Positions 1,081-47,935 of a stretch of 54,684 nt of DNA are shown piece by piece. Made by a program: the position numbers and the translations under genes. The first letter of the stretch is position 1. Each line of letters starts with the position of its first letter. Origin of the DNA: a virus (taxonomy: Duplodnaviria > Caudoviricetes). The notes beneath the pieces were generated by a model. The model saw only the letters and a program-made list of their open reading frames with translations. It was not told the origin of the DNA and searched no databases. The stretch spans positions 1 to 54,684 of the IMG/VR virus record IMGVR_UViG_3300012971_000005; one strand, written 5' to 3'.

Positions 1081-1232
1081 TCGAACAGCACTTTTATTGG
1101 CAGTTGTTCTCCATATACCTCGCCTTACTCGGGGTGCCAGTGCTGCTGGTGCTGCCGGTGGTGGGCCTCGCGTTGCTGGGTCGCGGGGCCTGCGGGGCCT
1201 GCGGGGCCTGGGCTAGGAGGCAGAAGCCATGA
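1077..1232 (+). CDS. Small single-pass membrane protein
   Basis: ATGA overlaps on both sides; long hydrophobic segment followed by a basic C-terminus. Confidence 0.55.
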   Translation: MIEQHFYWQLFSIYLALLGVPVLLVLPVVGLALLGRGACGACGAWARRQKP

Positions 1233-1630
1233 CGTGGGAAGAGCGCTTAGCCCAGGAAGGCTATGTGATCCGTGAGCGGTTCGCCAGCCGTGCCCCGAGT
1301 CCGGCCCTCCGCCCAAAGGATGCTGAGGCCGCCGAGACCATGCCCGAAGGCACGCTGCTGGCGGAGGTCCGGGCCCTGGCCAAACGCTACGGCTGGAACG
1401 GTGTGTATCATACGCATGATAGCCGCAAGTCAGAGCCGGGATTCCCGGATATTGTGATTTGCAATGGCCATTCATTGCTACTAAAAGAGCTAAAGACAAA
1501 TACTGGCAAGCTCACGATGGACCAGCAGCGCTGGCTGTCCCTGCTGCAGCACTGTAACACGATTGAGGCAGGCGTGTGGCGTCCCCGCGACCTCGCCCAG
1601 ATCGAGCAACGCCTGCGGAAAGGACGCTAA
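1229..1630 (+). CDS. VRR-NUC domain nuclease (PD-(D/E)xK; possible Holliday junction resolvase)
   Basis: Motifs SEPGFPDIVI, ELKTNTGKLT.DQQRWL and VWRP. Confidence 0.85.
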   Translation: MTWEERLAQEGYVIRERFASRAPSPALRPKDAEAAETMPEGTLLAEVRALAKRYGWNGVYHTHDSRKSEPGFPDIVICNGHSLLLKELKTNTGKLTMDQQRWLSLLQHCNTIEAGVWRPRDLAQIEQRLRKGR

Positions 1631-2042: not shown

Positions 2043-2226
2043 TCTTGACCTTCCTTCCAATCTGGTTTACAACGCCCGGCATGTCCCGCTGGTTCCTGTG
2101 GGTCTCCAGGATGCCTCACCTGAAGAAGCATACAAAATTAGCTTTATTTTTACAAATATCATATCATTAATATTGGCATTGTCAATAATGCTCTCGTGTC
2201 ATCCTCTCACCTGCGAAGGACACCTC

Positions 2227-27744: not shown

Positions 27745-27898
27745 CTTAAACTAATCCTTTACGATACATAGAAGTTATTTTCTGCGTCTATCGTGCTATA
27801 CTTCCTTGTGCAGCTAGGGTCTGCAGCCCGACAAGCCAGCACCTGTACTGGTTGCTGCACTCATCCTCTACAGGTTCTAACCAAACAGGAGGTTAGTC

Positions 27899-28657
27899 AT
27901 GCCTCAAGTCTCATCTGTCTGCCAATATCTTCCCTGTAGCACACCGTTTCTCGTGACTGCCTATAAACGCCGCATTGGTGTTGGCTTATATTGTTCAGAC
28001 TACTGCCGTAGTGCTGCACGTCGAGTACCACTGCTGCCTATCCCGTGTGGCTATTGTGGCAGCATCTTTCTGGTTCGTATCACTCTTTTCAAAAACGGTG
28101 AAGGAAAATATTGTTCGAAAGCCTGTCGTGTCAAAGGATTGACGCTGCCATTGCCAGAACGTTTTTGGAACAAAGTTATACGATGTTCTCATGAACAAGA
28201 CTGCATATACTGTTGTTGGACCTGGACTGCTGGCCATGACAAAGCTGGATATCCTACAATCTCGATTACCCATAGCAAACCAGGCCGCGCTTCCCGCGTA
28301 GGCTGGGAACTCTGGCACAACCGACCTCTTCCTGCTCATAAACTTGCCGCCCATTACTGTAACAATCCTCGCTGTATCAATCCCCAGCATATCTATCCAG
28401 CCACAACCCAAGAAAATGCCGCTGATGCTATACGGGCTGGCACACTTGCCCATGGAAGTACACACCACCATAGCACCCTTACTGAAGAAGATATCCTTCG
28501 CATTTTCACTCTTACTGCTCAAGGAGTTTCCCGATATACCATTACTCAGCAAATGCCTGTAAGATATGAAACTGTCTGCCGTATATTACGCCGTGAAGCT
28601 TGGCGCCATGTCCCCATCCCTGACGCCCTCCTCACTGCGATCACCAGGAGGCACTAA
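27899..28657 (+). CDS. Free-standing HNH homing endonuclease (zinc-ribbon repeats, HNH, HTH)
   Basis: YCSDYCR/YCSKACR, ERFWNKV, CWTWT, AHYCNNPRCINPQHI, TTQENAAD; lower GC; AGGAGG RBS; upstream TGCTATACT. Confidence 0.9.
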   Translation: MPQVSSVCQYLPCSTPFLVTAYKRRIGVGLYCSDYCRSAARRVPLLPIPCGYCGSIFLVRITLFKNGEGKYCSKACRVKGLTLPLPERFWNKVIRCSHEQDCIYCCWTWTAGHDKAGYPTISITHSKPGRASRVGWELWHNRPLPAHKLAAHYCNNPRCINPQHIYPATTQENAADAIRAGTLAHGSTHHHSTLTEEDILRIFTLTAQGVSRYTITQQMPVRYETVCRILRREAWRHVPIPDALLTAITRRH

Positions 28658-31873: not shown

Positions 31874-32809
31874 TCAATCCTTCTGTTTATCTACATACTG
31901 TGCACGTCCAGTCTTGAGACGATAGCTTACTTGCATAAGACTCAAGCCTGTCGCGCGCACTGCATCCATCATCGAGGGATATTCCACGCCACCAAGCATG
32001 ATCGCTCTAGCCTTCCAGTTCTTTCCTCCTGTCCGTGATGCCGACATCTTGGCTTTGGTATCTTCGCGGTGCGGAATGCCTTTGTTCCAGGCTTTCTGCC
32101 CTTTATGGAGCGCCGATAACTTCTGACGGTGTGCCTCAGATAACGGGCCAAGTTTTTTCCCAAGCGTAGGGCTAGGACGTCCCTGCGCTTTCGCTGCCAT
32201 CTTCGCCCGTGCCTCTGCAGAATGTTTCCGCCCCTGCATCGGATTAGCATGCGTCGCGTAATAATCCTTCAGTCCTGCCGACACTTGAGCCTTTGTCGCC
32301 TCATCCCGTGGTTTGCCCCGCCTAGCAGCGGCAATCTTTTCCCTGGCCTCCTCGGTATGATGCTGTCCACGCCAGGCATCTGACGCCTCGGCCAGTTTCT
32401 GCCGCCTTGCTGCGGACACTGGCACACCTTTGCCACGATGATGCCCCGAATTCACTTCTAACAGCTTGGCTTTGTGCTCAGCACTCATGCCTTTTCCGTA
32501 CAGGCCATTCGCCTCTGCAAGTTGCCCTTCCCCGCCAGACGTCATGTTATAGCCAAGTGGCCCAAACGTCTGATACTGCGCAATGGCAACTCGTTCCATC
32601 GCACATAACGCTTCCCAAGAATCCGCCTGCCCAAGAATCGTCACGACAAATGCCTCTTTCCCGTACTTGCGTATCGCCCGCGCAAAGGCGGTTTCTAACC
32701 CATGCCGCGCTTGGGCCACATGATCACGCCAGCGGGCTGCCACGGATTTCGTGGTAATCCCGATGTAGCGCTTCTCCGTTACCGTATTAATCACGAGATA
32801 CAGATACAT
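31874..32809 (-). CDS. Free-standing GIY-YIG homing endonuclease with NUMOD3 repeats
   Basis: YLYLVINTVTEKRYIGIT, RWRDH, GYNMTSGGEG; repeats HTEEAREKI, HSAEARAKM, HREDTKAKMS. Confidence 0.9.
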   Translation of the reverse strand: MYLYLVINTVTEKRYIGITTKSVAARWRDHVAQARHGLETAFARAIRKYGKEAFVVTILGQADSWEALCAMERVAIAQYQTFGPLGYNMTSGGEGQLAEANGLYGKGMSAEHKAKLLEVNSGHHRGKGVPVSAARRQKLAEASDAWRGQHHTEEAREKIAAARRGKPRDEATKAQVSAGLKDYYATHANPMQGRKHSAEARAKMAAKAQGRPSPTLGKKLGPLSEAHRQKLSALHKGQKAWNKGIPHREDTKAKMSASRTGGKNWKARAIMLGGVEYPSMMDAVRATGLSLMQVSYRLKTGRAQYVDKQKD

Positions 32810-32916: not shown

Positions 32917-34155
32917 TTAGGCCGCAATGCGCACGGCCAAATCGGGGTATATGTACTGCCAGCCATAGAGCACATCCAACCGGCCCGCACTGATATCATT
33001 CGCTCCGTCCTGATACATATAGAACCGTATCGAGATGTTACTATCGGGGTCACTCACCCGTTCACACAGTTCCCTGGGTACGCCGGGCGGGTAATCCAGA
33101 TCCACAATCGCCAGGGTCAAGGCGTCCCGGTGAAAGCCCAGATTCTGCGGGCTGACCGTATTCGCCGCACCAATGACCGTGAGCGGCGCATTACCCAGCG
33201 GCGAGGCGTTCACCGTCTGAAACTGCGTGCGTGAGCCATCCGGGTTGGGCGGCGTAATGGCCGGGTAAATCGGAATCGTCGCCACGCCTGAGGCATCGCT
33301 GGAGGTCTGCGCCTGCACCACAAAGTTCTGCAAACGCCCGGTGGATTGCCGATTCTGCGGATTGACCGAGTACACCCCCTGAATGGTGAAGACGTCACCC
33401 CGGTTGAGCCGCACACCGACCGCATTGGTCCAGCCGCCCGTTAACAGGTTCGAGCCCGTTTGGCCACCACCCGTCACCGTCGGCGTCCCACCCAGCGGGC
33501 CAACGGTATGCGCCGGAATGTTGACATCTTCATACCAGTCCCAGCCGCCCGATTGATCCATTAAGCCCGTACGGTAGAGTTCACTGATGCCGGGCTGCGG
33601 GTTAAACAGCGTCGTCTTGGCCTCGCCAATGACCGCCATACTATTGGCGCCCAGCATGAGCGAACGCATGCCTTCGCCCTTCGGCGCGCCTTGTTCGGTG
33701 AGAATCGCTCCGGCCTGCCAGTACGTCGCCAGCGAGTTCGGCACCACGCCCGGCGTGCCCAACATCCAGGGCACCTGGTAGTAGATCCCCAGGCCATCCT
33801 CGTCAATGACGTTGGCAATCCGGGCCACGGCGGGTTCGAGATGGCGCCTCCGAAAGTCATCCATGCTGAGGGTGAAGTCAAACGACGTGAAATTGAGATC
33901 CACGCCAAACATCGAGAGCGTCAGATTCGTATATTGCTCGTTGATCCCTTCAAAGTACGCCGTTGCGCCACGCCGCCCGACATAGCGGGGCGGTTTCCTG
34001 AGACTGATCGTCTGGCCGTGCTTGGCCCCTGTCTGGGCAAACTGGTTTTCATACTGCCGGTTCACCCGGTTGCCCATCTGGAGGCGGTTCTTGAGTATCA
34101 TCGCCGACTCGTAAGAAATGTGAGCCGGCGTGAGAAACGTATTATTGGTAGCCAT
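32917..34155 (-). CDS. Major capsid protein (P22 coat family)
   Basis: NTFLT, VNRQYENQF...GAKHGQTISLRKP, GDVFTIQGVYSVNP, QNLGFHRDALTLA, RLDVLYG. Confidence 0.92.
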   Translation of the reverse strand: MATNNTFLTPAHISYESAMILKNRLQMGNRVNRQYENQFAQTGAKHGQTISLRKPPRYVGRRGATAYFEGINEQYTNLTLSMFGVDLNFTSFDFTLSMDDFRRRHLEPAVARIANVIDEDGLGIYYQVPWMLGTPGVVPNSLATYWQAGAILTEQGAPKGEGMRSLMLGANSMAVIGEAKTTLFNPQPGISELYRTGLMDQSGGWDWYEDVNIPAHTVGPLGGTPTVTGGGQTGSNLLTGGWTNAVGVRLNRGDVFTIQGVYSVNPQNRQSTGRLQNFVVQAQTSSDASGVATIPIYPAITPPNPDGSRTQFQTVNASPLGNAPLTVIGAANTVSPQNLGFHRDALTLAIVDLDYPPGVPRELCERVSDPDSNISIRFYMYQDGANDISAGRLDVLYGWQYIYPDLAVRIAA

Positions 34156-35519: not shown

Positions 35520-36461
35520 TTAGGCTTTGCTTACTGTTTCATGTTGTCCTAAAGTTAAGACATTCGCTACGGCATCAAACAGCATTTCCGTTTGCCCCAG
35601 ATAAGACGCATGTAACCGCACAGATACCCGTGGAGACACCCGCAAGGTAATGCCGTTGCGCTGGTCATGGCGCGCCATGGCGCCCTTAAACTCCTCCCGC
35701 GCATTGTCGTCACAGACATACAACACATGCTGGACTGCCGCTATACGAGGGAGCAAGACATCTCCATGCCGCTCCTTGAGCAACCGCCGCCAATGCCGCT
35801 CTTTCCGTGTTTTGCCATCCTTCCCATAGGGATTCTCGCAGGTGTCATAGAGGACATCTTGCACGTCTGGGGGCAAAATGCCGTTGATATACAACGCTAC
35901 CACTCCACGACAGCCCGGTGAATGCTGCGATCCACGTGGCGCAGGAAAGCCATACACCCGACTAATCTGGACAAACAACTCCTGCTTATAGAGACAGTCG
36001 GCATCGTGGTCATAGACAGGCAGAAGAAACGCTTTCAGTACCGTCTGTTCGCGCTTGAGTTGCTCAAGTTCTTCGTCTCTGGCAATAAACCATAAGCGCG
36101 TCGCATGCCCACGCGGCGTTTTTTCCAGCATGCAGAGCTGCTTCGCCATGTCTAACGTAATGTCGTAATCTTTGCTCTTAGGTATATGACTAAATATAAC
36201 GTCGTTATTTTTGACGACGTTCCAATCAGTTCCTTCCAAAAAGGCGTATTCTTCAATACGCCTTTCAATCCAATCAACATATTCCGAGTTGACTTCGAGC
36301 CAACGCCAGACTTTTCTGGCATCGATGCAAGGAATCTGCCGACCGTTAAACATCCGCTCTCTAATGGTCAGCACTTGCTCAATCGTCAGCGTCGCGTCTG
36401 CCATGGCATCTTTCACTCGATGCACTTTTTTCGTATACTCCGCCGGTATCAGGTCACTCAT
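35520..36461 (-). CDS. AntA/AntB-type antirepressor with P63C-like C-terminal domain
   Basis: IDARKVWRWLEV...DWIERRIEEYAFLEGTD, DYDITLDMAKQLCMLE, RLWFI. Confidence 0.8.
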   Translation of the reverse strand: MSDLIPAEYTKKVHRVKDAMADATLTIEQVLTIRERMFNGRQIPCIDARKVWRWLEVNSEYVDWIERRIEEYAFLEGTDWNVVKNNDVIFSHIPKSKDYDITLDMAKQLCMLEKTPRGHATRLWFIARDEELEQLKREQTVLKAFLLPVYDHDADCLYKQELFVQISRVYGFPAPRGSQHSPGCRGVVALYINGILPPDVQDVLYDTCENPYGKDGKTRKERHWRRLLKERHGDVLLPRIAAVQHVLYVCDDNAREEFKGAMARHDQRNGITLRVSPRVSVRLHASYLGQTEMLFDAVANVLTLGQHETVSKA

Positions 36462-37536: not shown

Positions 37537-38174
37537 ACCATCCCATCCTCGCTACACTGGCGACCCAAACGCCGCAGTCGTGCAGCCAAGCGACTAACGT
37601 CGGCTTCAAGTTCCAGTACCGCGGTAGCCAGCGCATTGCGCTGTGTGACTGCCTCATTATAACGCTGCTGCCAATACGGTTCGCTCGTCGCCGCGTCCAC
37701 CGGCTGCCGGGCTTCCCAGGCCGCCAACTGCGCCATGACTTCCGCCTGTGACCGTCTGCCCAGATTGCGAAACCGCCGCAACTCCTGCGGTGGCAAATGC
37801 TGTAAGGCTTCGACCGTACGAATGTCGCCGCAAGCCAAGGCATTGCGTGCCCGCGTCGAGAGCCCCAAGACCACCAGCGGCGTCGGGGCCTTGACCTCCC
37901 ATTGCACTGCTTCGTGGGCCGCAAAAAACCGGGCACGCTGCGCCGCCAGCCCTGGAATCTCCTCGGTCTGACACCACGCATCCAGATCCCGAAACCGCGC
38001 CACTTCCCGACTGCTGCCCTGAGCCTGGCTGGGTCCCTCCAGACGGGCAATCCGGCTATGCTGCCAGACGACATAGTCCCCCCGGATGCCCCCCGGCACG
38101 GCCGGCGCCGGAGGAGGGATACGCAACTCCACTGCTTCACTATACTCGATGGCCTGAAACACCCACGGCATCAC
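37533..38174 (-). CDS. Protein with RNA polymerase alpha-subunit C-terminal (alpha-CTD)-like domain
   Basis: LGLSTRARNAL...IRTVEAL...ELRRFRNLGRRSQAEV fits the alpha-CTD pattern. Confidence 0.8.
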   Translation of the reverse strand: MMPWVFQAIEYSEAVELRIPPPAPAVPGGIRGDYVVWQHSRIARLEGPSQAQGSSREVARFRDLDAWCQTEEIPGLAAQRARFFAAHEAVQWEVKAPTPLVVLGLSTRARNALACGDIRTVEALQHLPPQELRRFRNLGRRSQAEVMAQLAAWEARQPVDAATSEPYWQQRYNEAVTQRNALATAVLELEADVSRLAARLRRLGRQCSEDGMV

Positions 38175-39478
38175 GGCCCTCCCTCACGGGTCACGGCCTG
38201 CGACTGCGGCTGTGGACCATACATCGGCAGACTGCCTTCAACGTTCGCCGCCGGGTAGACCTGCTCTGGTGACCACGACAAGGCGACGGTATGCGGCCCA
38301 CTTGCACCACCCATCCCCGTATGCAGGAGACCATCATACCCCGCCTGTTGGAGCACCTGGGCGAGTTGCGCTTCCGCATCGCGTTCGGTCGTCGCCGTGA
38401 AGACATTGGGGGGCACGCCTTCCGGCACCGGCGGTCGCGTGCCATACTGCAAGAGGGATTCCCGCATGGCCCGGTAGGCATCATGGCCCGTCATGGGGGT
38501 ATCGCGGCCATACGTCGCCAGCAAATACCCCCCGGCCTGTTTCTCGCCACCCTCCACCAGGGCCTGCGCCAGCGTACTGCTGGTCATGCCGGAGCCCTCA
38601 CGCAGATCGATGGGATTGCGGAAATTGGGATACACTGAACGGACATTCGGGGCTGCGGCCCTGGCCCACGACGCCTGCCTTTGCGTCTGTTGCAACACCC
38701 GCTCCATCGCCTGCACATCGGCCTGACGCCGTGGATCATTCCGCATCCAGGCCAACGTGTCCTGCATCTGGGCTATGTCACGCTCCCAGGCAGGCAGGGC
38801 TGCTGGATTGGCATACGGACTGGCATAGCCTAACTGCTCATACGTCGGCATCGCCTGGGATCCGCCAGCGACTTCAGGATTATCCGTCATGTAAATCCCC
38901 GGCCCATAAAGATTCCCGCCTGCACCTGTACCAGACCGCCCCATCTCAAAATCAGGATACACCCGCTCCGTCCCATGGTAAAACCGCTTAAGCTTCCCCT
39001 GCTCATCCCGCATCACACTTTGCGGTAACGGCTCCCCTCGTACTCCCCGCGGCACCGGACCCAGATTGCCCCGCTCCGATGCCAGCCCACCGAACCGCGG
39101 CCCCGGACTACCGGCCGTCTCCAGCACCGCCTTGCCGCCCCTGAGCAGACCCGGTGCCAGCAGAAAGGCAGCCTGACTCACTGGATCGGCCAGGGAGCCA
39201 AACGCGATGGGCTCGACCTCGCCCAGCTCAGACGCCCGACGCTGCCCGTACAGCTGCTGCCAGGATGCCTCCGCCTCGGGATGCACCGGCAATCGCGACA
39301 CCAGAGAAGGCTGCGCTAATTGCTCTTGCACCGCCGGCCAGTCGACCTGGTCAAAGTTCGGATACGCCTCCCGGTAGCGCTGGATCATATCCTCCGTCTG
39401 CCGGATACCCGCCCCGAGCTGCTCCCGCAATTGTTGCCGCAGAGCTTTGGTTTGCATCGTACTGGTGCCGTTCGCCAT
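38171..39478 (-). CDS. Protein with ADP-ribosyltransferase-like (polyvalent-protein ART) domain
   Basis: RDEQGKLKRFYHGT, YGPGIYMTDNPEVA, NVRSVY..FRNPIDL, AGYDGLLH. Confidence 0.65.
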   Translation of the reverse strand: MANGTSTMQTKALRQQLREQLGAGIRQTEDMIQRYREAYPNFDQVDWPAVQEQLAQPSLVSRLPVHPEAEASWQQLYGQRRASELGEVEPIAFGSLADPVSQAAFLLAPGLLRGGKAVLETAGSPGPRFGGLASERGNLGPVPRGVRGEPLPQSVMRDEQGKLKRFYHGTERVYPDFEMGRSGTGAGGNLYGPGIYMTDNPEVAGGSQAMPTYEQLGYASPYANPAALPAWERDIAQMQDTLAWMRNDPRRQADVQAMERVLQQTQRQASWARAAAPNVRSVYPNFRNPIDLREGSGMTSSTLAQALVEGGEKQAGGYLLATYGRDTPMTGHDAYRAMRESLLQYGTRPPVPEGVPPNVFTATTERDAEAQLAQVLQQAGYDGLLHTGMGGASGPHTVALSWSPEQVYPAANVEGSLPMYGPQPQSQAVTREGGP

Positions 39479-40044
39479 CACCGCATCCCCCATGGCTGTC
39501 GGTACAATTGCCCCAGATTCGGCGCAAACTGGCCCGGCACATACCCTTGCGACACCTGCGGCACCTGCGGCATGACCGACGACCCCGGCATGAGTTGCGG
39601 CGTCAGACGCTGCATCAGCGCCCAGTCGTCTGGCGACATCCCCTGCGGCCCCAGCCCGGCCCGCTGCCGCGCTACTTCCCGCTCCAAGGCCGGTGGTGCC
39701 GGAAGGACCGTACCCGTCGTCGGCATCGCCTGCAACTGCTGCCACAACTGCTGCACCGCGGGATCAGACCCCCGCGCCGGAAGGACCGTACCCGTCGTCG
39801 GCATCGCCTGCAACTGCTGCCACAACTGCTGCACCGCCGAGTCAGACCCCTGCGCCCCCACGGCCGGCCTCGGACTCCAGCCCTGGTAGATGGCCCGTAA
39901 GGCATCTGCCGTCGTACCCGTCTCCCCCATGCCACCAACGTTTTGCTGCACCCACGACGGCCCCGACGGCCCCGCATCCAGCCACGATGGACTCAGTTGC
40001 GGGCCAAGCATCGCCCCGTACCAGTCTGCTGCATTCCACGCCAC
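39478..40044 (-). CDS. Gln/Pro-rich hypothetical protein with a 78-bp tandem duplication
   Basis: 39698-39775 is repeated at about 39776-39853 (GSD.AVQQLWQQLQAMPTTGTVLPA). Confidence 0.6.
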   Translation of the reverse strand: MAWNAADWYGAMLGPQLSPSWLDAGPSGPSWVQQNVGGMGETGTTADALRAIYQGWSPRPAVGAQGSDSAVQQLWQQLQAMPTTGTVLPARGSDPAVQQLWQQLQAMPTTGTVLPAPPALEREVARQRAGLGPQGMSPDDWALMQRLTPQLMPGSSVMPQVPQVSQGYVPGQFAPNLGQLYRQPWGMR

Positions 40045-40056
40045 GACGCGCCCCCC

Positions 40057-40572
40057 TTAGCGACCAGGATAATCCCGCTCCCCCGTCAACCACTGCCGCA
40101 GCACGTAATGCTCCACCGGCGTCAGGGCCTCCGGCTGATAATTCTGGTACACCGACGGATGCACCTCGCGCGCCGCCCCTAACATTTTGTCCATGATCGC
40201 GTGCTGCGCCCCCTCTGATAACCCCGCCGTCTGCTGATTCAGGAAGTGCAGAAGCTCATGGCCGAGCGTATTCCACGTACTGGCGGGCGCTTTCCCCGTC
40301 TGATACCGAATCACATTGGCCTCCGGGTCAAACGACCCGACCGCTTGCTCCCGCGCCGCGAGTTGCGGGTCCGGCAACACGCTCACCGTCTGCGGCACCG
40401 CCTGCGCCCGATCCAGGATACGCTTATACATATCCAGCAGATAGTCGCCCGACGGCTGCGCCTGTAACCCTTGCAGCATCTGCTGCCCGGATGGCGTCGT
40501 CATCACCTCCGCTTCCGCCTCCCGCGGTCCCAACAGCGACGAGAGCCAATCCTTGACATCCCACGCCATCAC
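40057..40572 (-). CDS. Zincin-like metallopeptidase-motif protein
   Basis: VGSFDPEANVIRY followed by TLGHELLH (HExxH). Confidence 0.65.
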   Translation of the reverse strand: MMAWDVKDWLSSLLGPREAEAEVMTTPSGQQMLQGLQAQPSGDYLLDMYKRILDRAQAVPQTVSVLPDPQLAAREQAVGSFDPEANVIRYQTGKAPASTWNTLGHELLHFLNQQTAGLSEGAQHAIMDKMLGAAREVHPSVYQNYQPEALTPVEHYVLRQWLTGERDYPGR

Positions 40573-40796: not shown

Positions 40797-43160
40797 TTAG
40801 CCCTCCGCGTTCCCCTCGCCCTCTTCCCGTTCCTCCGCCTCGAGTGCCGCTAACTGCTCCCGCATCTGCTGGAGATGCCGCATCAGCCCCGCCACATTCC
40901 CCACCGCTGTATGGGCGTCCTGGCGCCGGCTCATCAGCATCTTGTCACGCTCCATCTCCAGCATGGCCATATCCTGCCGCGCCTTCATCGCCGATTCGGT
41001 CGCTTGTAACTCGACTTCGCGCTCCTTCAGTTGGATCTCCCGCAACTCCATCATGCGGTCCTGCTTCAGTTGCTGATTCTCCTGGGTGGCTTGACTCGCC
41101 ACCTGCTCCACTTGACTCGCATGGGCATTGAGGGCCTGGGCCTCCTGTGTCTTCTGCTGGAGCCGCTGCATCACCACAGGTAACAGGTCTTCGGGCTTCT
41201 GCCCCTCATCGTCTTGCAACATGCCAGGCGGCAGCGTCAACTTCGCCCGCCTCGCCGCCTCTTTGGCATCGTCAAAGTCCATATTGCCCACGATCAGGTC
41301 AGGGATCACCGCCCCGAGCGCCGGAATCGTCTCGGCCACCTTGATCAAGTTCTCCACCGCGTCCTGCCGCTGGGTCTTATAATTGGCACCCACATCCGCC
41401 ACCACATCATACGTCCCCACGCTCAGGTTATAGATGCCCTCCACCCCGGCTTGCAGCTCTTGCAGGCCGGCTTGCCGCGCTTGCGGGTCAGGATGGAGCA
41501 TAATCTGCCGCACGCTGTCATCCTTGCCCAGAATCCGCAACACCCGATCCGGCTCCCGGTACACCCGCGGAATGGCATCAACTAAAATCCGCATGACATG
41601 CCGCACCGCCCAGCGTAAATGCTCGGCATAGTGCGAGCTCCCCATTTCACTCTCGTTGCGCCGGATTTCCGCATGCCGCCCACTCGTATCATTCGACGGC
41701 TCCCCCAAATCGGCTGGCGTTAACCCCGTCGTATTGTACAGGTCTTGCTGGGCCTGCTGTCTGGCCAGCGCAATCGCCTGAATGGCGGGCTCCGCCGTCT
41801 GCCGCTGCGGCGGGGGCATGAGCTGGCCATTGGGCGCAAAATCGGGATTGTAGGCCAGATAACTGTAGGCAACCGTGTTCGCGTTGGCCCATTCCGGGCG
41901 ATTCTGAAACTGCTTGACCGTCCCAATATAGGAGGACTTCGGCGCCAGGGCGACCGTTTCCGCCGAGGTCGTGGTCCAATAATTGTACGCGCGCTGCGCA
42001 TCAATCATGTCCCACACCACGCCGCGATATTCGACTTCGCCGTTGAGGTCAATCTCGTCGCCAATGACGGGCACAATCGGCAGATAGCGACTTGGCCAAA
42101 TGGAGCGCTCAACAATCGTATCGCCCACCAGTTTGCAGGCCCGGATAATCGGCAGTTCGCTCCGACGCTGTTGCTGGACCGCGCCCGCTTCCGTGTCAAG
42201 GAGCGGCGTCACGCCGTACCGCAGCATTTCCCAGGCCACACTGGAAAGCAGCGCCGCCTCCTGTGCCTGTTCATCCTCCGTAAGTTCGTCCTGCGCCTGC
42301 ATAATAGGCACGTAGCGCGTTTCGCCACTGGAGAGCTGCACCAACTGGACCTGCAACGCTTCCCGGTAGTAGTAATCCACCAGCAATGCCTCGTCGCGGC
42401 TGACCCAGCCATCCCCCGTACTCGCCCAGGCGCTTGAGACCCCCCGCGGGATCTCGTAGCGTTCGCACACCTGCGCACGATTCATGCGCTCAACCACTAA
42501 CCCCCACTCCGCCGTGTGATAATCGGGGGTCCGGCGCCCAGCGGGATCAAGGTACACCGCAAAGGGATTGAGAATCCGCTCCAGGCGCAGCACCTGCTGA
42601 AAGCTCCACGGGCTCTCATAGTCCGTCAGCACACGGATATAGCCTTTGCCGTGCGTCACGGCCCCATCAAACGCCGTATCAACCACCGTATCCCAGTCAC
42701 TCTGCTGCAAAATGGCGCGGATAAGTCCGTCAAACACTGACGCCGTCTCGACGTCAGCGCCCGACCCCACCGGGCGCGTTTTCCCCGCCGGCCGGTTCTG
42801 CTGCTCGGCATTGGTGATTTGCCGGATGAATTTCCCCGTCTGGTTGATCGTGAGACACGGACGCGGGTTGGGACCCGACGTGCGGACATAGATTTCGGCG
42901 GCTTCCCACTGTTCCCCTGCCCGAAATTTGAGGCATTTCAGGGCCTTGGTGCGCCAGACCCCTTCAAAGCGTTCGACAGCCTGAAAGCGCTGATGCGCCA
43001 GGTCACAGATGTAGCGGTCTTGCTGCACACGGCGCTCATACTGCGCCCGCGCGTCGGCGTCAGAGCGGGTCTGGATAATGGGCTGACCGCGCTGAGACAC
43101 ACGGGGATCAGGCCGAAACGGCACCGCCGTGGGAGAGAGACCGGGAGGCAGCGTCGCCAC
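40797..43160 (-). CDS. Portal protein (P22 gp1 family)
   Basis: FRAGEQW, RPCLTIN, DAQRAYNY, NDTSG, SVGTYDVVAD.GANYKTQRQ, C-terminal coiled-coil barrel. Confidence 0.92.
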   Translation of the reverse strand: MATLPPGLSPTAVPFRPDPRVSQRGQPIIQTRSDADARAQYERRVQQDRYICDLAHQRFQAVERFEGVWRTKALKCLKFRAGEQWEAAEIYVRTSGPNPRPCLTINQTGKFIRQITNAEQQNRPAGKTRPVGSGADVETASVFDGLIRAILQQSDWDTVVDTAFDGAVTHGKGYIRVLTDYESPWSFQQVLRLERILNPFAVYLDPAGRRTPDYHTAEWGLVVERMNRAQVCERYEIPRGVSSAWASTGDGWVSRDEALLVDYYYREALQVQLVQLSSGETRYVPIMQAQDELTEDEQAQEAALLSSVAWEMLRYGVTPLLDTEAGAVQQQRRSELPIIRACKLVGDTIVERSIWPSRYLPIVPVIGDEIDLNGEVEYRGVVWDMIDAQRAYNYWTTTSAETVALAPKSSYIGTVKQFQNRPEWANANTVAYSYLAYNPDFAPNGQLMPPPQRQTAEPAIQAIALARQQAQQDLYNTTGLTPADLGEPSNDTSGRHAEIRRNESEMGSSHYAEHLRWAVRHVMRILVDAIPRVYREPDRVLRILGKDDSVRQIMLHPDPQARQAGLQELQAGVEGIYNLSVGTYDVVADVGANYKTQRQDAVENLIKVAETIPALGAVIPDLIVGNMDFDDAKEAARRAKLTLPPGMLQDDEGQKPEDLLPVVMQRLQQKTQEAQALNAHASQVEQVASQATQENQQLKQDRMMELREIQLKEREVELQATESAMKARQDMAMLEMERDKMLMSRRQDAHTAVGNVAGLMRHLQQMREQLAALEAEEREEGEGNAEG

Positions 43161-43459
43161 TAGGCGTCCTCCCTCCCTGCCTGCATGGCCTCACGCACCG
43201 CCGGCAAATTCACCAGCACCGTCTGAAGCAATTCCTCATGTATCGCGCTGCTATCCCCCAACATCTCGCCACACCGATCAAGCACGATAGCCAGAAACAA
43301 CACACAGCCCTGCACCACGGTGTGCACGGACACCAACCCCTCGGGTGTCCGCACCCACGGGGTCTGGTCGGCGAGCGTCTGATGCAACACCTGCGCCAGC
43401 TCTGCGGCCTTTTCCGCAACCGCCTCCGTGTTATAGTCCCACCGAGAATCTAGGGCCAT
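43160..43459 (-). CDS. Hypothetical protein
   Basis: Coupled to the portal start. Confidence 0.6.
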   Translation of the reverse strand: MALDSRWDYNTEAVAEKAAELAQVLHQTLADQTPWVRTPEGLVSVHTVVQGCVLFLAIVLDRCGEMLGDSSAIHEELLQTVLVNLPAVREAMQAGREDA

Positions 43460-43460
43460 G

Positions 43461-43625
43461 TTATTTTTTCGCCTTCACTTTTTTGGGTAACTTCTTGCCC
43501 TTGGGCTTGCTGGCCATCTCTTCCAGCTTCGCTTCACTCAAACCTGTTTGGGTCTTTTCGCCCGCACGCTGGCGTGCAAGTTCAGCCCCAAAGAAACGTT
43601 GCTGAGCACGTGATTTTGCTGGCAT
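43461..43625 (-). CDS. Small basic protein (DUF3008-like; not in the ORF track)
   Basis: MPAKSRAQQRFFGAELAR...LSEAKLEEMASKPKGKKLPKKV; AGGA RBS. Confidence 0.7.
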   Translation of the reverse strand: MPAKSRAQQRFFGAELARQRAGEKTQTGLSEAKLEEMASKPKGKKLPKKVKAKK

Positions 43626-43628
43626 ATC

Positions 43629-43838
43629 CTACGGCCTCCTTTCTCCAAGTCGGGGCTCCGGTGCTGGCGGCGCTGGAGCTTCTGTGGCGTCCGGCTCTGC
43701 CGGCATCTCCGCCGGAGCCGTATCTGGCACAATAATCAGGCAGGCGTCCGGCTCCAGCCAGCCCTCGACAAATTCAGTCCGCGTCAGCAGCACGGCCTGA
43801 CGCTGCCCACAATGGGGACATAGGGCAATAATCTGCAT
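43629..43838 (-). CDS. Small zinc-ribbon hypothetical protein
   Basis: GAGGA RBS; CPHC. Confidence 0.55.
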   Translation of the reverse strand: MQIIALCPHCGQRQAVLLTRTEFVEGWLEPDACLIIVPDTAPAEMPAEPDATEAPAPPAPEPRLGERRP

Positions 43839-43848
43839 GGTGCAATCC

Positions 43849-44046
43849 TCACGCCGGCGGCGCGGGCTGCCCATCGATCATCACGACATGCAGCGGGCAC
43901 AGCAGCAGCGTCCCATACTCATGCCACCCGGGCGGGGCCGCGACCTCAGGAATGGCCGACCTGGGCACCGCTTCGACATGCTGCGTCTCGGTCGAATCAC
44001 AGCCAGCAATCGAGCAATGGTACGTGTATGTGCAGTCAAGTGTCAT
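43849..44046 (-). CDS. Small Cys/His hypothetical protein
   Basis: CSIAGC, PPGW, LCPLH; ATG directly abuts the CRISPR-like repeat. Confidence 0.55.
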   Translation of the reverse strand: MTLDCTYTYHCSIAGCDSTETQHVEAVPRSAIPEVAAPPGWHEYGTLLLCPLHVVMIDGQPAPPA

Positions 44047-44140
44047 ATTTCAATCCCTTCCAGGGCAGATGTCCTTCGCACTGCGCACCAGGACATATTT
44101 GCCGGTGGTCTCGGCACAGTTGTTTCAATCCCTTACAGGG
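44047..44140 (-). CRISPR. CRISPR mini-array: partial repeat (44140-44122), 40-nt spacer, 35-nt repeat (44081-44047); no cas genes
   Basis: Minus strand CCCTGTAAGGGATTGAAAC, spacer, GTGCGAAGGACATCTGCCCTGGAAGGGATTGAAAT; CCCT/AGGG stem plus ATTGAAA(C/T) end typical of class 1 repeats. Confidence 0.7.
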
Positions 44141-44143
44141 TAA

Positions 44144-44530
44144 TTATGGCAATTGCTCCAGCACACTGACCGTACTATCGGTACCGCCTTGCCGAATACA
44201 GCTCCAAGCTTGTTGCCCGGCCTGCGAGGCAATCGTCAGCGTACCGTTGGGCACCACCAGGTAGCCCACTGTCGTCGACGGCGTCAGAGGATACTTCCCG
44301 CTGCTGGTGCTACAGCGCACCGCATTGGCCGTTTCATTGGTAATACTCAGAGCACACCGCGACGTATTCGCATCGACCACGGGCACCACCGCCGTGCTAA
44401 CAGCAAGCGCGGCTCCAGCGGTCCCCTTCGCATTGATGCGCGTATCATGGCATGGGGGCACCCCGGTCTGCGCCAGAACGAGGGAAACACAGGTCAGGCT
44501 GAGCCACATGCTACCGATGAGTGCTTTCAT
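44144..44530 (-). CDS. Signal-peptide-bearing small beta protein, paralogue of 16763-17233
   Basis: MKALIGSMWLSLTCVSLVLAQ; RC...TPSTTVG...AWSCIR...DSTVSVLEQLP. Confidence 0.7.
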   Translation of the reverse strand: MKALIGSMWLSLTCVSLVLAQTGVPPCHDTRINAKGTAGAALAVSTAVVPVVDANTSRCALSITNETANAVRCSTSSGKYPLTPSTTVGYLVVPNGTLTIASQAGQQAWSCIRQGGTDSTVSVLEQLP

Positions 44531-44563
44531 TAGTGTGTTCGTTTTGCACATGTTATGCACACC

Positions 44564-47500
44564 TCAGTGTCCCATCCAGGCCGTCGATTGCATCCCGAAG
44601 CGCCCCAGCAGCATTGGCGGAGGCGTGGGCGGCTCTGGCGTCTCCTGCAACCGAAATTCATCCTCGATCCCCGCCACGACGTCCAGGCTATTGGCCAGCG
44701 TGCGTAGGGCGTCGGCGCCATGCGAAGAGTTATGCACAAGCGCCCCATTCGCCAAGGAAAACTCTTCAAGCCCTGGCACGGTAAGACACCACGTATCTTC
44801 AGGCTTTGACACGCCCTGAACGGCGGCGATAGTGAGCGGCTTTACAACTTTGCGTACAAAATTTCTGACTGTTGCTCTTACGGCGTATAAGGGCGAGAAA
44901 AGGCTTTGTACAAAAGAGACACAAGCGTGTCTCCCGATTTTGTCTATTCCATTGCTGACCGAGCTTGGCATGGCGGCTATGCCAGAGGCGTCCGGCTTCC
45001 GAGCGATGCCATTCCGCGGCTTTTTGTCGCGCCAGGTCAACAAAATGTGGACCAGGATTGACGCCTTTTGTCCGATGCCATTGCTCTGAAAGGTGTTCTG
45101 ATCCATCAAGACACTCAAGATTGGAAAGGGCATTATTTGCGGCGTTGCTATCTCTGTGGTGAATATGGCATCCAACTGGGATAGGCCCAAAAGCCCTTTG
45201 CCATACTGCCCTATGAAGCCTTTTCCCAGCCCTCGCAAGATATCGCTCATTTGGCCACATACGGTAGAGACCACCATCAAAATACTGCGTAAGGGGGTCA
45301 AGGACGATTGGATCACTGTACCCGGCAAGAGGGACCCGGCGGATGTCCACCCGCTGTCCGTCTTGAATAAATGTTCCGGCGTACATCTCACCGTAAACCC
45401 GTCGCTGAACACAACTGCCACAAGTGGGGCATTTCTCCGCGTGATTCTCGGATTCTGGTATGCTTTCCAGCCACATGATGTTAAGACCTCCCCTGTTATA
45501 GGAAGGTCCATTATCTGATACGTTCCGTAACGTGTCAAGACCAAAGTATCACCAGTCAGACACCAGTCGTGCTCGGGATGCGCCGCAAAGGTCTTCTTCA
45601 CCTCATCCCACTCGTGCTTGTAATCCCTGAGCGCGTTAATCCCTAAGGTACAGCCATCCTCGTCAAACAGGAGTCGCGGGAAGAGTGTCCGCACGTTATC
45701 AATCCCAGTAGCCAGGCTGGTCCGTTGCACCGAGCGCACGACCCCTTGCACGAGGCGCTGCAAGACCTCTTCCCGGCGTTCCCCTGTGCCCCACTCCCGG
45801 TTATGGCCATCATGCGGCAACAGATGCGCCCGGTAGTTGCCCTGGTACGGCAGAGCACTGAGATACTGGCCGTAATGCATCGCCCCGTAGCCGTGATTTT
45901 CGTAGTAGTGGATACAACACACCTGGCGCCCAATGAACTGCACACACCAGATGGACGTGTAATCGTCAATCCCTAAGTCCCAGAACGTATACACGGGATA
46001 GGTGGGGTCGTAGGGACAGCGCGTAATACGCCGCTCCTGGTCCACCTGGCGAAACTCATGGGCGTAGTAGGCCCCAGGGATGGCCGCTTCCCAGCTCAGG
46101 TAATACTCCTGGTCAATCAGCTCCTGGCTCATGCCCTCACGGCGATCCGCCTCGATATCGGCCTTACTAATCACGGGCTTGCCATCCTCGCCCTGACCAT
46201 CACGCTGCGTCTGCTCGACGCTGAGCACCTCGACGTACCAGTCAGGATTGTTCACGTTGGTCCGGTACAGTTCATACCCGTGGTTTTTGCCCCTAGGCGT
46301 ATAGGCAAAAGCGGCCCATCCGCCATTCTCCCGCAGAATAGGCCGGGCAATGTTCCAGCCAGCCGGATTCTGGAGGGCGTACTCCGAGAAGATCATGCCG
46401 ACGCCGTTGCCGCCCACGAGCACATCGAGGTTGCGGTCCGTGCCGAGAATCTGATACGTACTGCCGGGCTTCCGGGCGTCAGCAGGGTCTACCAGGACAA
46501 TCTGCATATCGGCTTTATTGGGCTCCTGATAGAGCAAGTCGGGCGGAAAATGATCGAGGTAGCGCTTCCCTTCACGGTCTATGCCGTCCCAAATGACGCG
46601 CCGGCCCTGATTTAATTTGGGGAAAATGTGGTAATAGTTGCCGACACGATCAAGCATTTGCTCAATGAGGAAATTGAGGATGGTTTTGTCTTTGCCGCTA
46701 TTATGGACTACATAACCATTTGCTAAAAAACTCTGATACCGTTGCGTTTCAAGGTCCCACGTTTCATGCAACCCTGCATCTTTCAACGTTACCCCAGCCG
46801 CATAAATGCCGTAATCTAAGACACGTGGAACAGCCTGGGGCATAGCTAAAATAGCTTCAACCCGCTCCATTTTCTCAGGATGCACCAACGACAACCCATG
46901 ACACAAGCGCTGCACTGCGTCCATGGCCCAGATACGCAACGTCCAGCAACTTTCACGTTCATACTTGATCGAGCCAACCCGAATACCCCATTTACGCAAA
47001 AGCCAATAATAATCCCACGCTAAGCCCTCACTTTCCCCAGCATGGATCTTAATTTCCGCATGCGCCTTAAGGGGTTTTATCCCCCACATGGTAGCCGGGA
47101 AAAGATAAAAACTCCCATCACAATCAAGCACACCGCTTAAAAATGCCCAGACCGCTGCAGCATTACTCTCCCATAAAAAACGCGGCATGCGCCGCGTCTC
47201 ATGTACGCCTAACGCCTCTTGCTGCGCAAAAAACGCTTTGATGGGATTAGGAGTATTTCCACCCCCCCGCGTGCCATTGGGCAAGCCAAGATCATAGCCA
47301 TTACCCTTAGGACGCCATTGGACCTGTACAGCAAAAACTTCTTGGGCTAAACGTTCTACACGCTTCAACAAGGCAAGCTCAGTATTGGTAAACTTCGGGC
47401 TTTGCACAGGAGATACCGAACCGTCAGCCATTAAGTAACCACACAACATAGCCAAACAAACATCGTCGCGCCAGCCAGACGCATGCCCACCATACACCGT

Positions 47501-47935
47501 AACGGTATCTAGAGAACCAGTAGGGCCTTTAGGGACAATAGCGCCAATAGGAAGAAAAAGACGACGTGAAGAGCCATTCCCATGCCGAATAAGAAAACGA
47601 TGGTCAGGAGTGCATATCACGGCAGGAAAACCAGCAGCCACCACATGGGAGCAGGGTTTGAGGCCCGCCATCCAGACATCACGCACGGTATCTTCGACAT
47701 AACCGCCCTGATGCCACGTCAAGAGACGATCCCCTGGTATCACCGTTTCAATAGGTTTCCAGGACCCATCTGCCATAGTGACATGGGTACCACGAGCTAA
47801 ACAGCGCCGATGCCACACGAGGATAAAGCGGCGAATCCCGCTGTCCCAGGCATCCCACAGGCGCCACTGATAGGAACGCGGCTCAAACAGATAGGGCAGG
47901 TCCAGGAGAATTTCGGTGGGTGTCTCAGTGCGCAC
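44564..47935 (-). CDS. terL: Terminase large subunit containing two inteins
   Basis: PRSYQ, VWHRR|SGKD (Walker A), IFSEYA, YTPRGKNH, FWDLG..D.T, HPEHDW|SSHGADALR. Confidence 0.95.
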   Translation of the reverse strand: MRTETPTEILLDLPYLFEPRSYQWRLWDAWDSGIRRFILVWHRRCLARGTHVTMADGSWKPIETVIPGDRLLTWHQGGYVEDTVRDVWMAGLKPCSHVVAAGFPAVICTPDHRFLIRHGNGSSRRLFLPIGAIVPKGPTGSLDTVTVYGGHASGWRDDVCLAMLCGYLMADGSVSPVQSPKFTNTELALLKRVERLAQEVFAVQVQWRPKGNGYDLGLPNGTRGGGNTPNPIKAFFAQQEALGVHETRRMPRFLWESNAAAVWAFLSGVLDCDGSFYLFPATMWGIKPLKAHAEIKIHAGESEGLAWDYYWLLRKWGIRVGSIKYERESCWTLRIWAMDAVQRLCHGLSLVHPEKMERVEAILAMPQAVPRVLDYGIYAAGVTLKDAGLHETWDLETQRYQSFLANGYVVHNSGKDKTILNFLIEQMLDRVGNYYHIFPKLNQGRRVIWDGIDREGKRYLDHFPPDLLYQEPNKADMQIVLVDPADARKPGSTYQILGTDRNLDVLVGGNGVGMIFSEYALQNPAGWNIARPILRENGGWAAFAYTPRGKNHGYELYRTNVNNPDWYVEVLSVEQTQRDGQGEDGKPVISKADIEADRREGMSQELIDQEYYLSWEAAIPGAYYAHEFRQVDQERRITRCPYDPTYPVYTFWDLGIDDYTSIWCVQFIGRQVCCIHYYENHGYGAMHYGQYLSALPYQGNYRAHLLPHDGHNREWGTGERREEVLQRLVQGVVRSVQRTSLATGIDNVRTLFPRLLFDEDGCTLGINALRDYKHEWDEVKKTFAAHPEHDWCLTGDTLVLTRYGTYQIMDLPITGEVLTSCGWKAYQNPRITRRNAPLVAVVFSDGFTVRCTPEHLFKTDSGWTSAGSLLPGTVIQSSLTPLRSILMVVSTVCGQMSDILRGLGKGFIGQYGKGLLGLSQLDAIFTTEIATPQIMPFPILSVLMDQNTFQSNGIGQKASILVHILLTWRDKKPRNGIARKPDASGIAAMPSSVSNGIDKIGRHACVSFVQSLFSPLYAVRATVRNFVRKVVKPLTIAAVQGVSKPEDTWCLTVPGLEEFSLANGALVHNSSHGADALRTLANSLDVVAGIEDEFRLQETPEPPTPPPMLLGRFGMQSTAWMGH
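44799..45476 (-). CDS. HNH homing endonuclease nested out of frame inside intein 2
   Basis: LHRAVWQRAFGPIPVGCHIHHRDSNAANNALSNLECL; C-terminal CLFCTKPF...KFCTQSCK; GGAGG at 45491-45487. Confidence 0.88.
   Translation of the reverse strand: MWLESIPESENHAEKCPTCGSCVQRRVYGEMYAGTFIQDGQRVDIRRVPLAGYSDPIVLDPLTQYFDGGLYRMWPNERYLARAGKRLHRAVWQRAFGPIPVGCHIHHRDSNAANNALSNLECLDGSEHLSEQWHRTKGVNPGPHFVDLARQKAAEWHRSEAGRLWHSRHAKLGQQWNRQNRETRLCLFCTKPFLALIRRKSNSQKFCTQSCKAAHYRRRSGRVKA
45487..45538 (-). promoter_or_regulatory. sigma70-type promoter and RBS for the nested HNH, embedded in intein coding sequence
   Basis: TTGACA (45538-45533), 17-nt spacer, GATAAT (45515-45510); AGGGGAGG ending 10 nt before ATG 45476. 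Confidence 0.7.
46700..47803 (-). mobile_element. Intein 1 (368 aa) in the TerL Walker A motif, with in-frame LAGLIDADG endonuclease
   Basis: CLARGTHV...CTPDHRF...LCGYLMADGS...FLSGVLDCDGS...ANGYVVHN|S; lower GC. Confidence 0.93.

Follow-up and report, generated by a model that had tools for sequence, protein, structure and literature searches.

A CRISPR-derived mini-array of trimmed repeats in the late gene string of a tailed phage, with an insert matching a neighbouring gene of sibling phages

The window analysed here is the whole of IMG/VR virus record IMGVR_UViG_3300012971_000005 (Duplodnaviria; Caudoviricetes), a complete phage genome of 54,684 nt with terminal repeats. Between the genes for its terminase large subunit (terL) and its portal protein, positions 44140..44047 of the minus strand very probably carry a cas-less, CRISPR-derived mini-array made of trimmed copies of a 37-nt repeat. 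Two units, R1 and R2, frame a spacer-like insert resembling a gene of sibling phages, and the best-supported function of the element is heterotypic superinfection exclusion, by which the phage would lend the Cascade of its host a guide against those siblings. The features of the array, including the CRISPR RNA (crRNA) it may yield, are the following:

44122..44140, minus strand: R1, a trimmed repeat unit, CCCTGTAAGGGATTGAAAC, recognised from the sequence and by a covariance model
44140..44130, minus strand: hairpin of R1, CCCT-GTA-AGGG, with the predicted Cas6 cut between 44130 and 44129
44129..44122, minus strand: 8-nt handle of R1, ATTGAAAC
44066..44121, minus strand: spacer-like insert, 56 nt between the two 19-nt cores
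44047..44065, minus strand: 19-nt core of R2, CCCTGGAAGGGATTGAAAT, recognised from the sequence
44047..44070, minus strand: repeat-derived span of R2, equal to the 3' 24 nt of the 37-nt repeat (covariance model positions 14-37)
44065..44055, minus strand: hairpin of R2, with the predicted Cas6 cut between 44055 and 44054
44054..44047, minus strand: handle of R2, ATTGAAAT
44055..44129, minus strand: predicted crRNA of 75 nt, composed of an 8-nt 5' handle, the 56-nt insert and an 11-nt hairpin

The two units were alike at 17 of 19 bases and started 75 nt apart. Both lay in a 97-nt gap of the minus strand, which runs from the stop codon of the upstream open reading frame (ORF; 44146..44144, ending 3 nt short of R1) to the ATG at 44046. 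Genes from ~9.4 kb to 53 kb were almost all on the minus strand, and the units therefore run in the late-gene sense. The initial annotation had described units agreeing at 17 of 19 positions, read in the sense of the late transcript between terL and portal, the upstream one trimmed to the stem plus an 8-nt handle; these points were confirmed by the sequence together with Pfam and PHROG assignments, R1 being 19 nt long. The pairing that it had noticed between ATGTCCT (44096..44090) and AGGACAT (44075..44069) exists as an inverted repeat and forms in the minimum-energy fold. Two of its lengths had to be revised, as only the last 24 nt (44070..44047) of the supposed 35-nt downstream repeat are repeat-derived, and the homologous insert measures 46-49 nt (44121..44073) instead of 40 nt. 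The downstream unit does adjoin the ATG at 44046, as claimed, but the proposed distance of one base applies only if the unit is counted to 44048; its last base, 44047, touches the start codon (0 bases). The purine run GGAAGGGA within R2, 7 nt 5' of this ATG, is the sole Shine-Dalgarno-like stretch there.

With up to 3 mismatches allowed, the R1/R2 pattern occurred in only these 2 copies in the 54,684-nt genome, compared to a mean of 0.09 matches in shuffled genomes, where 1 of 100 shuffles reached 2. Since the pattern was taken from the data themselves, the comparative evidence weighs more than this shuffle test. The unit hairpin has a 4-bp stem (-3.9 kcal/mol) and is equally weak in phage units and in host repeats.

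R1 and R2 correspond to the 3' end of a family of 37-nt repeats, an end composed of the 4-bp hairpin and ATTGAAAN. When metagenome contigs were scanned with the R2 19-mer and its preceding G, 95 stretches were returned, with one copy (60 stretches), two (21), three (5), four (6) or at least five (3). The longer stretches were regular arrays of the repeat GTCTCAAAGCAGTAGCTGCCCTGGAAGGGATTGAAAC and its variants, with a period of 72-75 nt and spacers of 35-37 nt, as in L311 (10 repeats), L319 (11 repeats) and L245 (5 repeats). Ten flanking ORFs were scanned, and four encoded Cas1 (L230, L256, L301, L311), four a class IV aminotransferase, one an acyl-CoA dehydrogenase and one an HNH protein; these flanks identify the stretches as cellular CRISPR loci. 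The Cas1 of L230 reached 422.7 bits on TIGR04093, the NCBIfam model for type I-D Cas1d (cut-off 385). NCBIfam searches of the cas-linked contigs also identified Cas4 (three ORFs) and Cas2 (one ORF), both above cut-off, as well as two Cas6-like ORFs that scored 44.9 and 40.7 bits, below the cut-off of 58.65, both being interrupted by contig ends. The gene order in these soil metagenome contigs was cas6-cas4-cas1-cas2-array. The phage repeat thus matches arrays beside Cas1, Cas2, Cas4 and Cas6-like ORFs; the initial annotation had made its reading depend on a bacterial array with a similar repeat, and such arrays do exist, beside cas genes. Based on Cas1, gene order, repeat shape and the protospacer-adjacent motif (PAM) described below, the assignment of the family to type I-D-like CRISPR-Cas systems of soil bacteria is well supported, though short of proof, and the bacteria that bear them presumably include the host of this phage.

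A covariance model built from 20 host repeat variants recognised only R2 (26.1 bits, E 1.9e-4) and R1 (22.4 bits, E 0.0014) in the window, the next best match having an E value of 0.92; its core comes from sequences fetched with the R2 19-mer, which makes the core score partly circular, while its 5' half and the cas context are independent of that query. The exact R1 19-mer, with T in the loop, ended genuine repeats in genome contigs L210 and L196. When genome contigs were scanned with the two-unit pattern, at least 120 stretches were recovered, and arrays ending in the same 19-mer occurred in several phyla. Among the genome-contig matches listed, none had the 5' half of the family (best 30/37), and 401 sampled genomes from the phylum of one genome contig bearing the 19-mer gave 0 matches to it.

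Within three of the host-type loci (L311 891..1000, L230 230..320 and L233 ~1212..1266), a trimmed repeat was also present between cas2 and the first full repeat. It follows a TATAAT-like box and precedes a conserved ~56-nt segment, 92% identical between loci; the trimmed copy and this segment look like a crRNA-like regulatory RNA or a leader element rather than a spacer. Solitary or paired units were further observed 0-15 nt ahead of long ORFs in metagenome contigs L246, L252, L255, L270/L273/L276 and L317.

Three IMG/VR contigs (G001, G002 and G003) encoded a portal protein 95-97% identical in amino acids (aa) to that of the window, and a fourth, L101, duplicates the G001 type. At the same site as in the window, G003 (L006) possessed a 22-nt trimmed unit 2 bases after the upstream stop, an unrelated 32-nt spacer and a full 37-nt repeat, which scored 51.1 bits on the covariance model and abuts the same ATG. 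G002, a complete genome of 54,145 nt, had no unit, its gap being 13 nt long with an AGAGGA of its own. G001 and L101 had a single unit ahead of their homologue of the 128-aa gene that lies upstream of the array in the window, and the 65-aa ORF that follows the array is absent from them and replaced. L271, a more distant sibling, had one trimmed unit at 1449..1467 (+) in the gap just before the portal gene. The intergenic sites at which the unit is found in this phage group therefore number at least three, and the same locus carries different spacers (G003) or no array at all (G002); its varied sites and the differing spacer at the common site indicate that the element is mobile or short-lived within the group. 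No target of the G003 spacer was found in the window, in the fetched loci or, with every sixth base left free, in the viral contigs.

The carrier and target genotypes co-occur in the same sequencing run, as the contigs of run X1 included the carrier type, one G001-type and one G003-type; X1 may be the source of the window itself, and is then not independent evidence for the carrier. Runs X2 and X5 each contained a 151-nt contig identical to the window over 44019..44169; the two runs have equal sizes and may be a single data set deposited twice. The array-less junction of the G002 type was present in X6. The sequencing runs listed for this DNA included no RNA run.

In the siblings, a conserved promoter-like stretch and a small ribbon-helix-helix (RHH)-like ORF were observed between terL and the secreted-protein gene (L004 2100..2350; L006 1880..2065; L007, minus strand, ~2110..2260), both of which are missing from the window. 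The solitary unit of G001 forms the 3' end of its RHH-like ORF, with an ATGA stop/start overlap.

The source of the insert was traced to the gene adjacent to the array. Bases 1-46 of the insert (44121..44076) are of the sibling-type allele of that gene, the homology probably reaches base 49 (44121..44073, judged by eye), and no source was found for the last 7-10 nt. By BLAST, the insert matched G001 (L004) at 40/44 positions (E 6e-11) and G003 (L006) at 41/46 (E 9e-10), both inside the homologue of the 128-aa gene, with mismatches at positions 9, 18, 24, 38 and 45 in G001 and 9, 15, 24, 29 and 38 in G003. A degenerate codon-wise pattern of the insert recovered only G001, G003 and L101 (the second G001-type contig). 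In the reading frame of the gene, the insert translates into the peptide of the sibling type, and where it departs from the siblings this is mostly at third codon positions. BLAST against the carrier genome returned only the insert itself and chance 10-14-mers, in agreement with the initial annotation, which had seen no self-target by eye. The corresponding gene of the carrier was located as follows:

44144..44530, minus strand: secreted-looking ORF of 128 aa (138 aa from the GTG at 44560), with its ATG at 44530 and a signal-peptide-like start
44272..44317, minus strand: the carrier's own segment orthologous to the protospacer, matching at 24/46 positions and mismatched at spacer positions 1 and 2

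Judged from the alignments, this ORF is the carrier's own diverged allele of the gene matched by the spacer in the siblings. The window allele is 60-66% identical in aa to those of the three siblings, compared to 77-78% among the siblings, and divergence peaks in the protospacer region, the rest of the mature protein being well conserved. The spacer accordingly matches close relatives and not the carrier, whose orthologous site is altered.

The trinucleotide GTC directly precedes the protospacer in 3/3 siblings, and the insert starts exactly at the 3' end of R1, which is the PAM-proximal orientation expected for type I systems. The sibling-derived part covers all of the first 35-37 guide bases, of which positions 1-8 agree with each of the three siblings. 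The type I-D PAM is described as 5'-GTN/GTH upstream on the non-target strand (PMC10212523, PMC9123187), and the GTC flank fits it, as judged from only two independent protospacers, namely that of the window insert and that of a spacer in the phage contig L048. The initial annotation had proposed either a competitor as target or a decoy, and had suggested a search for a PAM and for the spacers of related phages: the PAM was present in all siblings, the G003 spacer differs at the same site, and targeting of a competitor is the better supported of the two options, as the insert matches siblings right after GTC. A diversity-generating retroelement template was considered and dropped, as the differences between insert and allele are not adenine-specific; there was no reverse transcriptase among the Pfam matches of the 30 ORFs scanned, no search aimed at reverse transcriptase having been made.

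The same repeat family was also present in L048, an unrelated phage contig that has one ORF in common with the window (33% identity). At 11161..11383 (-), L048 possessed four 37-nt repeats ending in the same core, with spacers of 23, 33 and 36 nt. In its siblings L014, L042 and L079, the downstream gene is matched by spacer 2 at the ribosome-binding site (RBS) and start (28/31 aligned columns, with an indel); GTT precedes the target in these siblings, and the copy in L048 itself has CTT and internal differences. These siblings also had two trimmed units around a 40-nt insert (L014 655..745 (-); L042 3700..3785 (-)). A 14-mer common to L048 spacer 2 and the window (36394..36407), inside a gene, was judged to be due to chance, and two pattern matches 289 nt apart in L024 were set aside as unrelated to the family, as they sit after GC-rich hairpins. 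The cas-less mini-array of the initial annotation is thus upheld by the full repeat and different spacer in G003, by the same family in L048, and by the gene content of the window: neither Cas1 nor Cas6 is encoded in the complete phage genome, and no Cas domain was found in the 30 ORFs scanned against Pfam.

That the units are merely two short direct repeats resembling CRISPR repeat ends by chance is exceedingly improbable. They are just 19 nt long, their Rfam scores are below cut-off, and the RNA fold of the whole gap is unremarkable compared to shuffled sequences (z = -1.56); however, the same core lies inside a full 37-nt repeat at the same site in G003, the family forms cas-linked arrays, and the insert matches the gene of the siblings at the E value given above. 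Chance is excluded on account of these sibling and host-repeat data.

Under sibling exclusion, the array would be transcribed with the late genes, being on the same strand as all its neighbours. Host Cas6 would bind both 4-bp hairpins and cut after each of them (after 44130 and 44055), freeing the 75-nt crRNA 44129..44055 with the handle AUUGAAAC, the 56-nt insert and the R2 hairpin. The host Cascade carrying this crRNA would recognise the segment flanked by GTC where the neighbouring secreted-protein gene is present as the sibling-type allele, and a related phage entering the same cell would be degraded, while the diverged allele of the carrier would escape. Type I Cascades often tolerate mismatches outside the seed, especially at every sixth position (here 18 and 24), or prime on them. 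Cas6d is described as cutting after the stem-loop to leave an 8-nt 5' handle and a crRNA of ~72 nt, trimmed further in native hosts (PMC10212523). The period and product of 75 nt in the window are close to the units of host arrays (72-74 nt) despite the trimmed repeat and the long insert. The whole functional chain, from processing to the exclusion of siblings, is considered moderately probable; transcription, Cas6 cutting, Cascade loading, interference and the possession of such a system by the host are all presumed in it. Cas6 cutting would uncouple the 65-aa ORF from its RBS only in hosts with a matching CRISPR system.

The same hairpins might instead act as an RNA anti-CRISPR (Racr) decoy that soaks up host Cas6 or Cas7 or displaces host crRNAs, shielding the phage from the I-D spacers of the host itself, with the insert as a passenger or relic. 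Solitary units of the same family elsewhere in the siblings (ahead of the target gene in G001/L101, before portal in L271) and the predominance of single copies in the metagenome scan (60 of 95 stretches) point in this direction, and a late-mRNA piece ending at the R1 hairpin would be without a 5' handle, as in Racrs. Published Racrs are described as repeat mimics bound and cut by Cas6, and a non-targeting crRNA also lowered interference (PMC10651486). However, with two units spaced at 75 nt, the intervening RNA would have the regular 8-nt 5' handle that Racrs lack, the insert is non-random and matches the siblings starting right after the PAM, and neither an anti-CRISPR-like neighbour, among the Pfam and PHROG matches, nor a promoter of its own was identified. 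Because of the 5' handle and the PAM-anchored sibling match, a decoy as the sole role is disfavoured and seems unlikely; targeting of a competitor is better supported in view of the sibling array, the L048 array, the absence of Cas1 and Cas6, and a spacer matching siblings and not the carrier. A decoy role could plausibly coexist with targeting, especially for the solitary units of the siblings.

Several observations weigh against sibling exclusion by a functional array, in addition to the partly circular core score and the doubtful independence of X1. Concerning the host system, no Cas10d or Cas7d (nor Cas5d) was seen in the cas-linked contigs, which are only 1.6-3.1 kb long, and 54 distinct spacers (69 in total) from the fetched arrays gave no match to the window. 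Concerning the units, both are trimmed, R1 keeping 19 and R2 24 of the 37 nt, unlike the full-length, near-identical repeats of canonical arrays; their 4-bp hairpin is not favoured in the fold of the whole gap; and the minus strand upstream of R1 showed neither a sigma-70-like promoter nor a leader. Rfam matches at the units (CRISPR-DR10, DR54, DR60 and DR9) remained at about 18 bits or less against cut-offs of 39-45, CRISPR-DR10 scoring 18.2 and 17.8 bits at the two units against 39. Concerning the insert, no perfect target was found, the best sibling matches carrying 4-5 mismatches, and G002 was matched by BLAST over the first 27 nt only. With 56 nt between the cores, of which 46-49 nt have an identified source, the insert also departs from the spacer length of the family, its homology being 10-12 nt longer than the 35-37 nt of host spacers. 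This over-long insert and an R2 without the first 13 bases of the repeat are left unexplained by canonical Cas1-Cas2 acquisition or by simple recombination with a host array.

These irregularities would be expected if the array were a decayed relic, now only an intergenic spacer and RBS, its hairpin and purine run having no role beyond the translation of the 65-aa ORF, or if the insert were a scar left by recombination when an allele was exchanged. In favour of this reading, both units have lost part of the repeat and the insert has a non-canonical length, the 13-nt AGAGGA gap is gone in array-bearing phages, where R2 supplies the only Shine-Dalgarno-like run, and the locus is a mosaic hot spot, with an RHH gene in the siblings but not here and the 65-aa ORF replaced in G001. 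A tiny ORF from GTG 44117 to TGA 44043 also overlaps the ATG at 44046 in an ATGA arrangement; a conserved micro-ORF in the gap was nevertheless rejected, since in G003 its peptide is not conserved past the repeat-encoded tail. Other evidence speaks for retained function: the insert starts exactly at the repeat 3' end and, in its source gene, right after GTC; it is an internal 46-49-nt piece and not a gene end; the Cas6-to-Cas6 length is held at 75 nt; the conserved parts are those required for cutting and handle; and a second data set (X2/X5) has the array in identical form. A general RBS role is weakened by the position of start codons, which lay within 10 nt of the last repeat at 15/68 distinct loci, not significantly more often than at random places (14.7%; p = 0.067), a result that is not decisive for such a role at this locus. 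Taken together, a relic or scar appears rather unlikely.

An extension of sibling exclusion was also considered, in which the array would act jointly with the resistant allele beside it as a homing cassette guided by CRISPR. The host type I-D complex, with the phage crRNA as its guide, would cut the allele of a co-infecting sibling ~150-200 bp from the array site; repair from the carrier genome, by way of the flanks on the terL and portal sides, which are highly similar, would copy both array and resistant allele into the rival. This is distinctly unlikely on present evidence; if true, it would amount to a gene drive without a nuclease gene of its own, and would explain why spacers of viral mini-arrays often target genes adjacent to the array, a proximity that PMC6858448, in its passage on such targets, calls unexplained. 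A literature search on mini-arrays with homing or gene conversion returned no proposal of a homing cassette in the article parts covered.

The array interrupts a string of genes that starts with terL and ends with portal, with five small ORFs between the two, and lies between the first of these (128 aa) and the second (65 aa). Besides the 128-aa ORF, the genes of the string are:

44564..47935, minus strand: terL, 1123 aa, at the upstream end (PHROG terminase large subunit, E 3.5e-17), with intein signals (Pfam LAGLIDADG_3, 28.9 bits; Intein_splicing, 33.9 bits, just below the cut-off of 35.8)
43849..44046, minus strand: Cys-rich ORF of 65 aa, with its start codon directly 3' of R2, conserved in G002 and G003
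40797..43160, minus strand: P22-type portal, at the downstream end (Pfam P22_portal, 437 bits)

Its length of 1123 aa and the LAGLIDADG and intein-splicing signals make it probable that an intein bearing a homing endonuclease interrupts terL. The 128-aa and 65-aa ORFs matched no Pfam or PHROG family. Elsewhere, the genome encoded, according to Pfam and PHROG, a P22-type coat protein, a primase-polymerase/helicase, an SLT-domain protein, a GIY-YIG endonuclease, an AntA-type antirepressor and a methylase-helicase. The DNA of 43000..46000 had no match among deposited phages, and the portal protein was at most 33% identical to theirs, giving no cultured relative and no hint of the host.

Some further features were observed outside the array. 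An Rfam int-alpA motif at 27807..27874 (+) scored 40.1 bits (gathering score 35.8), the sole gathering-level match in the whole window; the 252-aa ORF that closely follows it on the plus strand (27899..28657) is the one in common with L048. A homing-type endonuclease with GIY-YIG and NUMOD3 domains (31874..32809 (-)), directly downstream of the P22-type coat gene (32917..34155), is a further selfish element within the structural module. Just downstream of the portal gene, a 524-aa ORF (38171..39745 (-)) contained an ART-PolyVal domain (ADP-ribosyltransferase of polyvalent proteins; 36.7 bits) and a 171-aa ORF (40057..40572 (-)) gave weak metallopeptidase (M91/M78) signals below cut-off; the two may be ejected or anti-defence proteins.

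To our knowledge, two archaeal viruses are the only ones whose mini-arrays have been shown to function; those of bacteriophages are known from sequence surveys. The present locus offers a compact, testable bacterial case, in which carrier, target allele and array-less sibling are all known and the PAM fits, and a mini-array of its repeat family exists in an unrelated lineage of soil phages too, at least in the L048 group. It indicates that phage arrays can be reduced to a Cas6 hairpin and handle while the Cas6-to-Cas6 length is kept, so that repeat detectors requiring near-full coverage may miss such trimmed arrays. It also points to the type I-D-like systems of soil bacteria as a battleground between phages; a passage on inhibitors in a review of type I-D names one anti-CRISPR only for that subtype (PMC10212523).

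Among known systems, the closest are the virus-borne mini-CRISPR arrays of the Saccharolobus portogloboviruses SPV1 and SPV2 (Medvedeva et al. 2019, PMC6858448). As described for viral mini-arrays (PMC6858448, PMC11656645), these have one or two spacers and no cas genes, with targets in close relatives near the array and a mutated locus in the carrier. By the same measure, the window has a single spacer, host-type repeats and no cas genes (Cas1 and Cas6 searches; 30 ORFs in Pfam). It shares with SPV1 and SPV2 the cellular-type repeats, the same array position with different spacers in siblings, the targets near the array in close relatives, the mutated orthologous site of the carrier, and the presence of carrier and target in one population. 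SPV1 and SPV2, however, are archaeal viruses with full repeats and host-like, promoter-bearing leaders, whereas the window is a tailed bacteriophage known from sequence alone, with trimmed units, no archaeal-type leader or promoter found, a location within the late gene string and a start codon immediately after the last unit; in its siblings, a reciprocal spacer was not found.

The survey of Faure et al. 2019, as cited in passages of PMC6858448, PMC7099407 and PMC11656645, reports phage-borne leaderless mini-arrays, some of whose spacers target adjacent genes in close relatives and not in the carrier, and mini-arrays of phages are likewise described as without host-type leaders in PMC6858448 and PMC7099407. 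The window resembles them in being phage-borne and leaderless with adjacent-gene targets in relatives, but the acquisition route proposed there, recombination with host arrays, does not obviously explain its 46-49-nt insert and a repeat without its first 13 nt. Racrs (Camara-Wilpert et al. 2023, PMC10651486) are phage-encoded mimics of host repeats with a Cas6 hairpin, and are described as solitary (no other repeat within ~100 bp), usually with their own promoter and without a 5' handle on the RNA; the solitary units of G001 and L271 fit this description, whereas the window has two units framing a targeting-competent insert with a handle. Type I-D arrays of Synechocystis and Microcystis (PMC10212523, PMC9123187) are similar in the 8-nt 5' handle, the ~72-nt crRNA and the GTN/GTH PAM, whereas the window differs from them by its lack of cas genes, by having just two units, both trimmed, and by an insert that exceeds the normal spacer length. 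Phage crRNA-like regulatory RNAs, which silence host immune genes using host Cas proteins, are described as acting on host promoters via partial matches (bioRxiv 10.1101/2024.10.29.618823), whereas the insert of the window matches a phage gene. Overall, the array of the window belongs to the already known virus-borne mini-arrays and represents a known strategy, not a new principle. Its particular traits are a soil type I-D-like repeat family, two units both trimmed to hairpin and handle with the Cas6-to-Cas6 length preserved, a place within a string of late genes, where the last unit directly adjoins a start codon, and a natural series of genotypes that comprises carrier, target and array-less forms.

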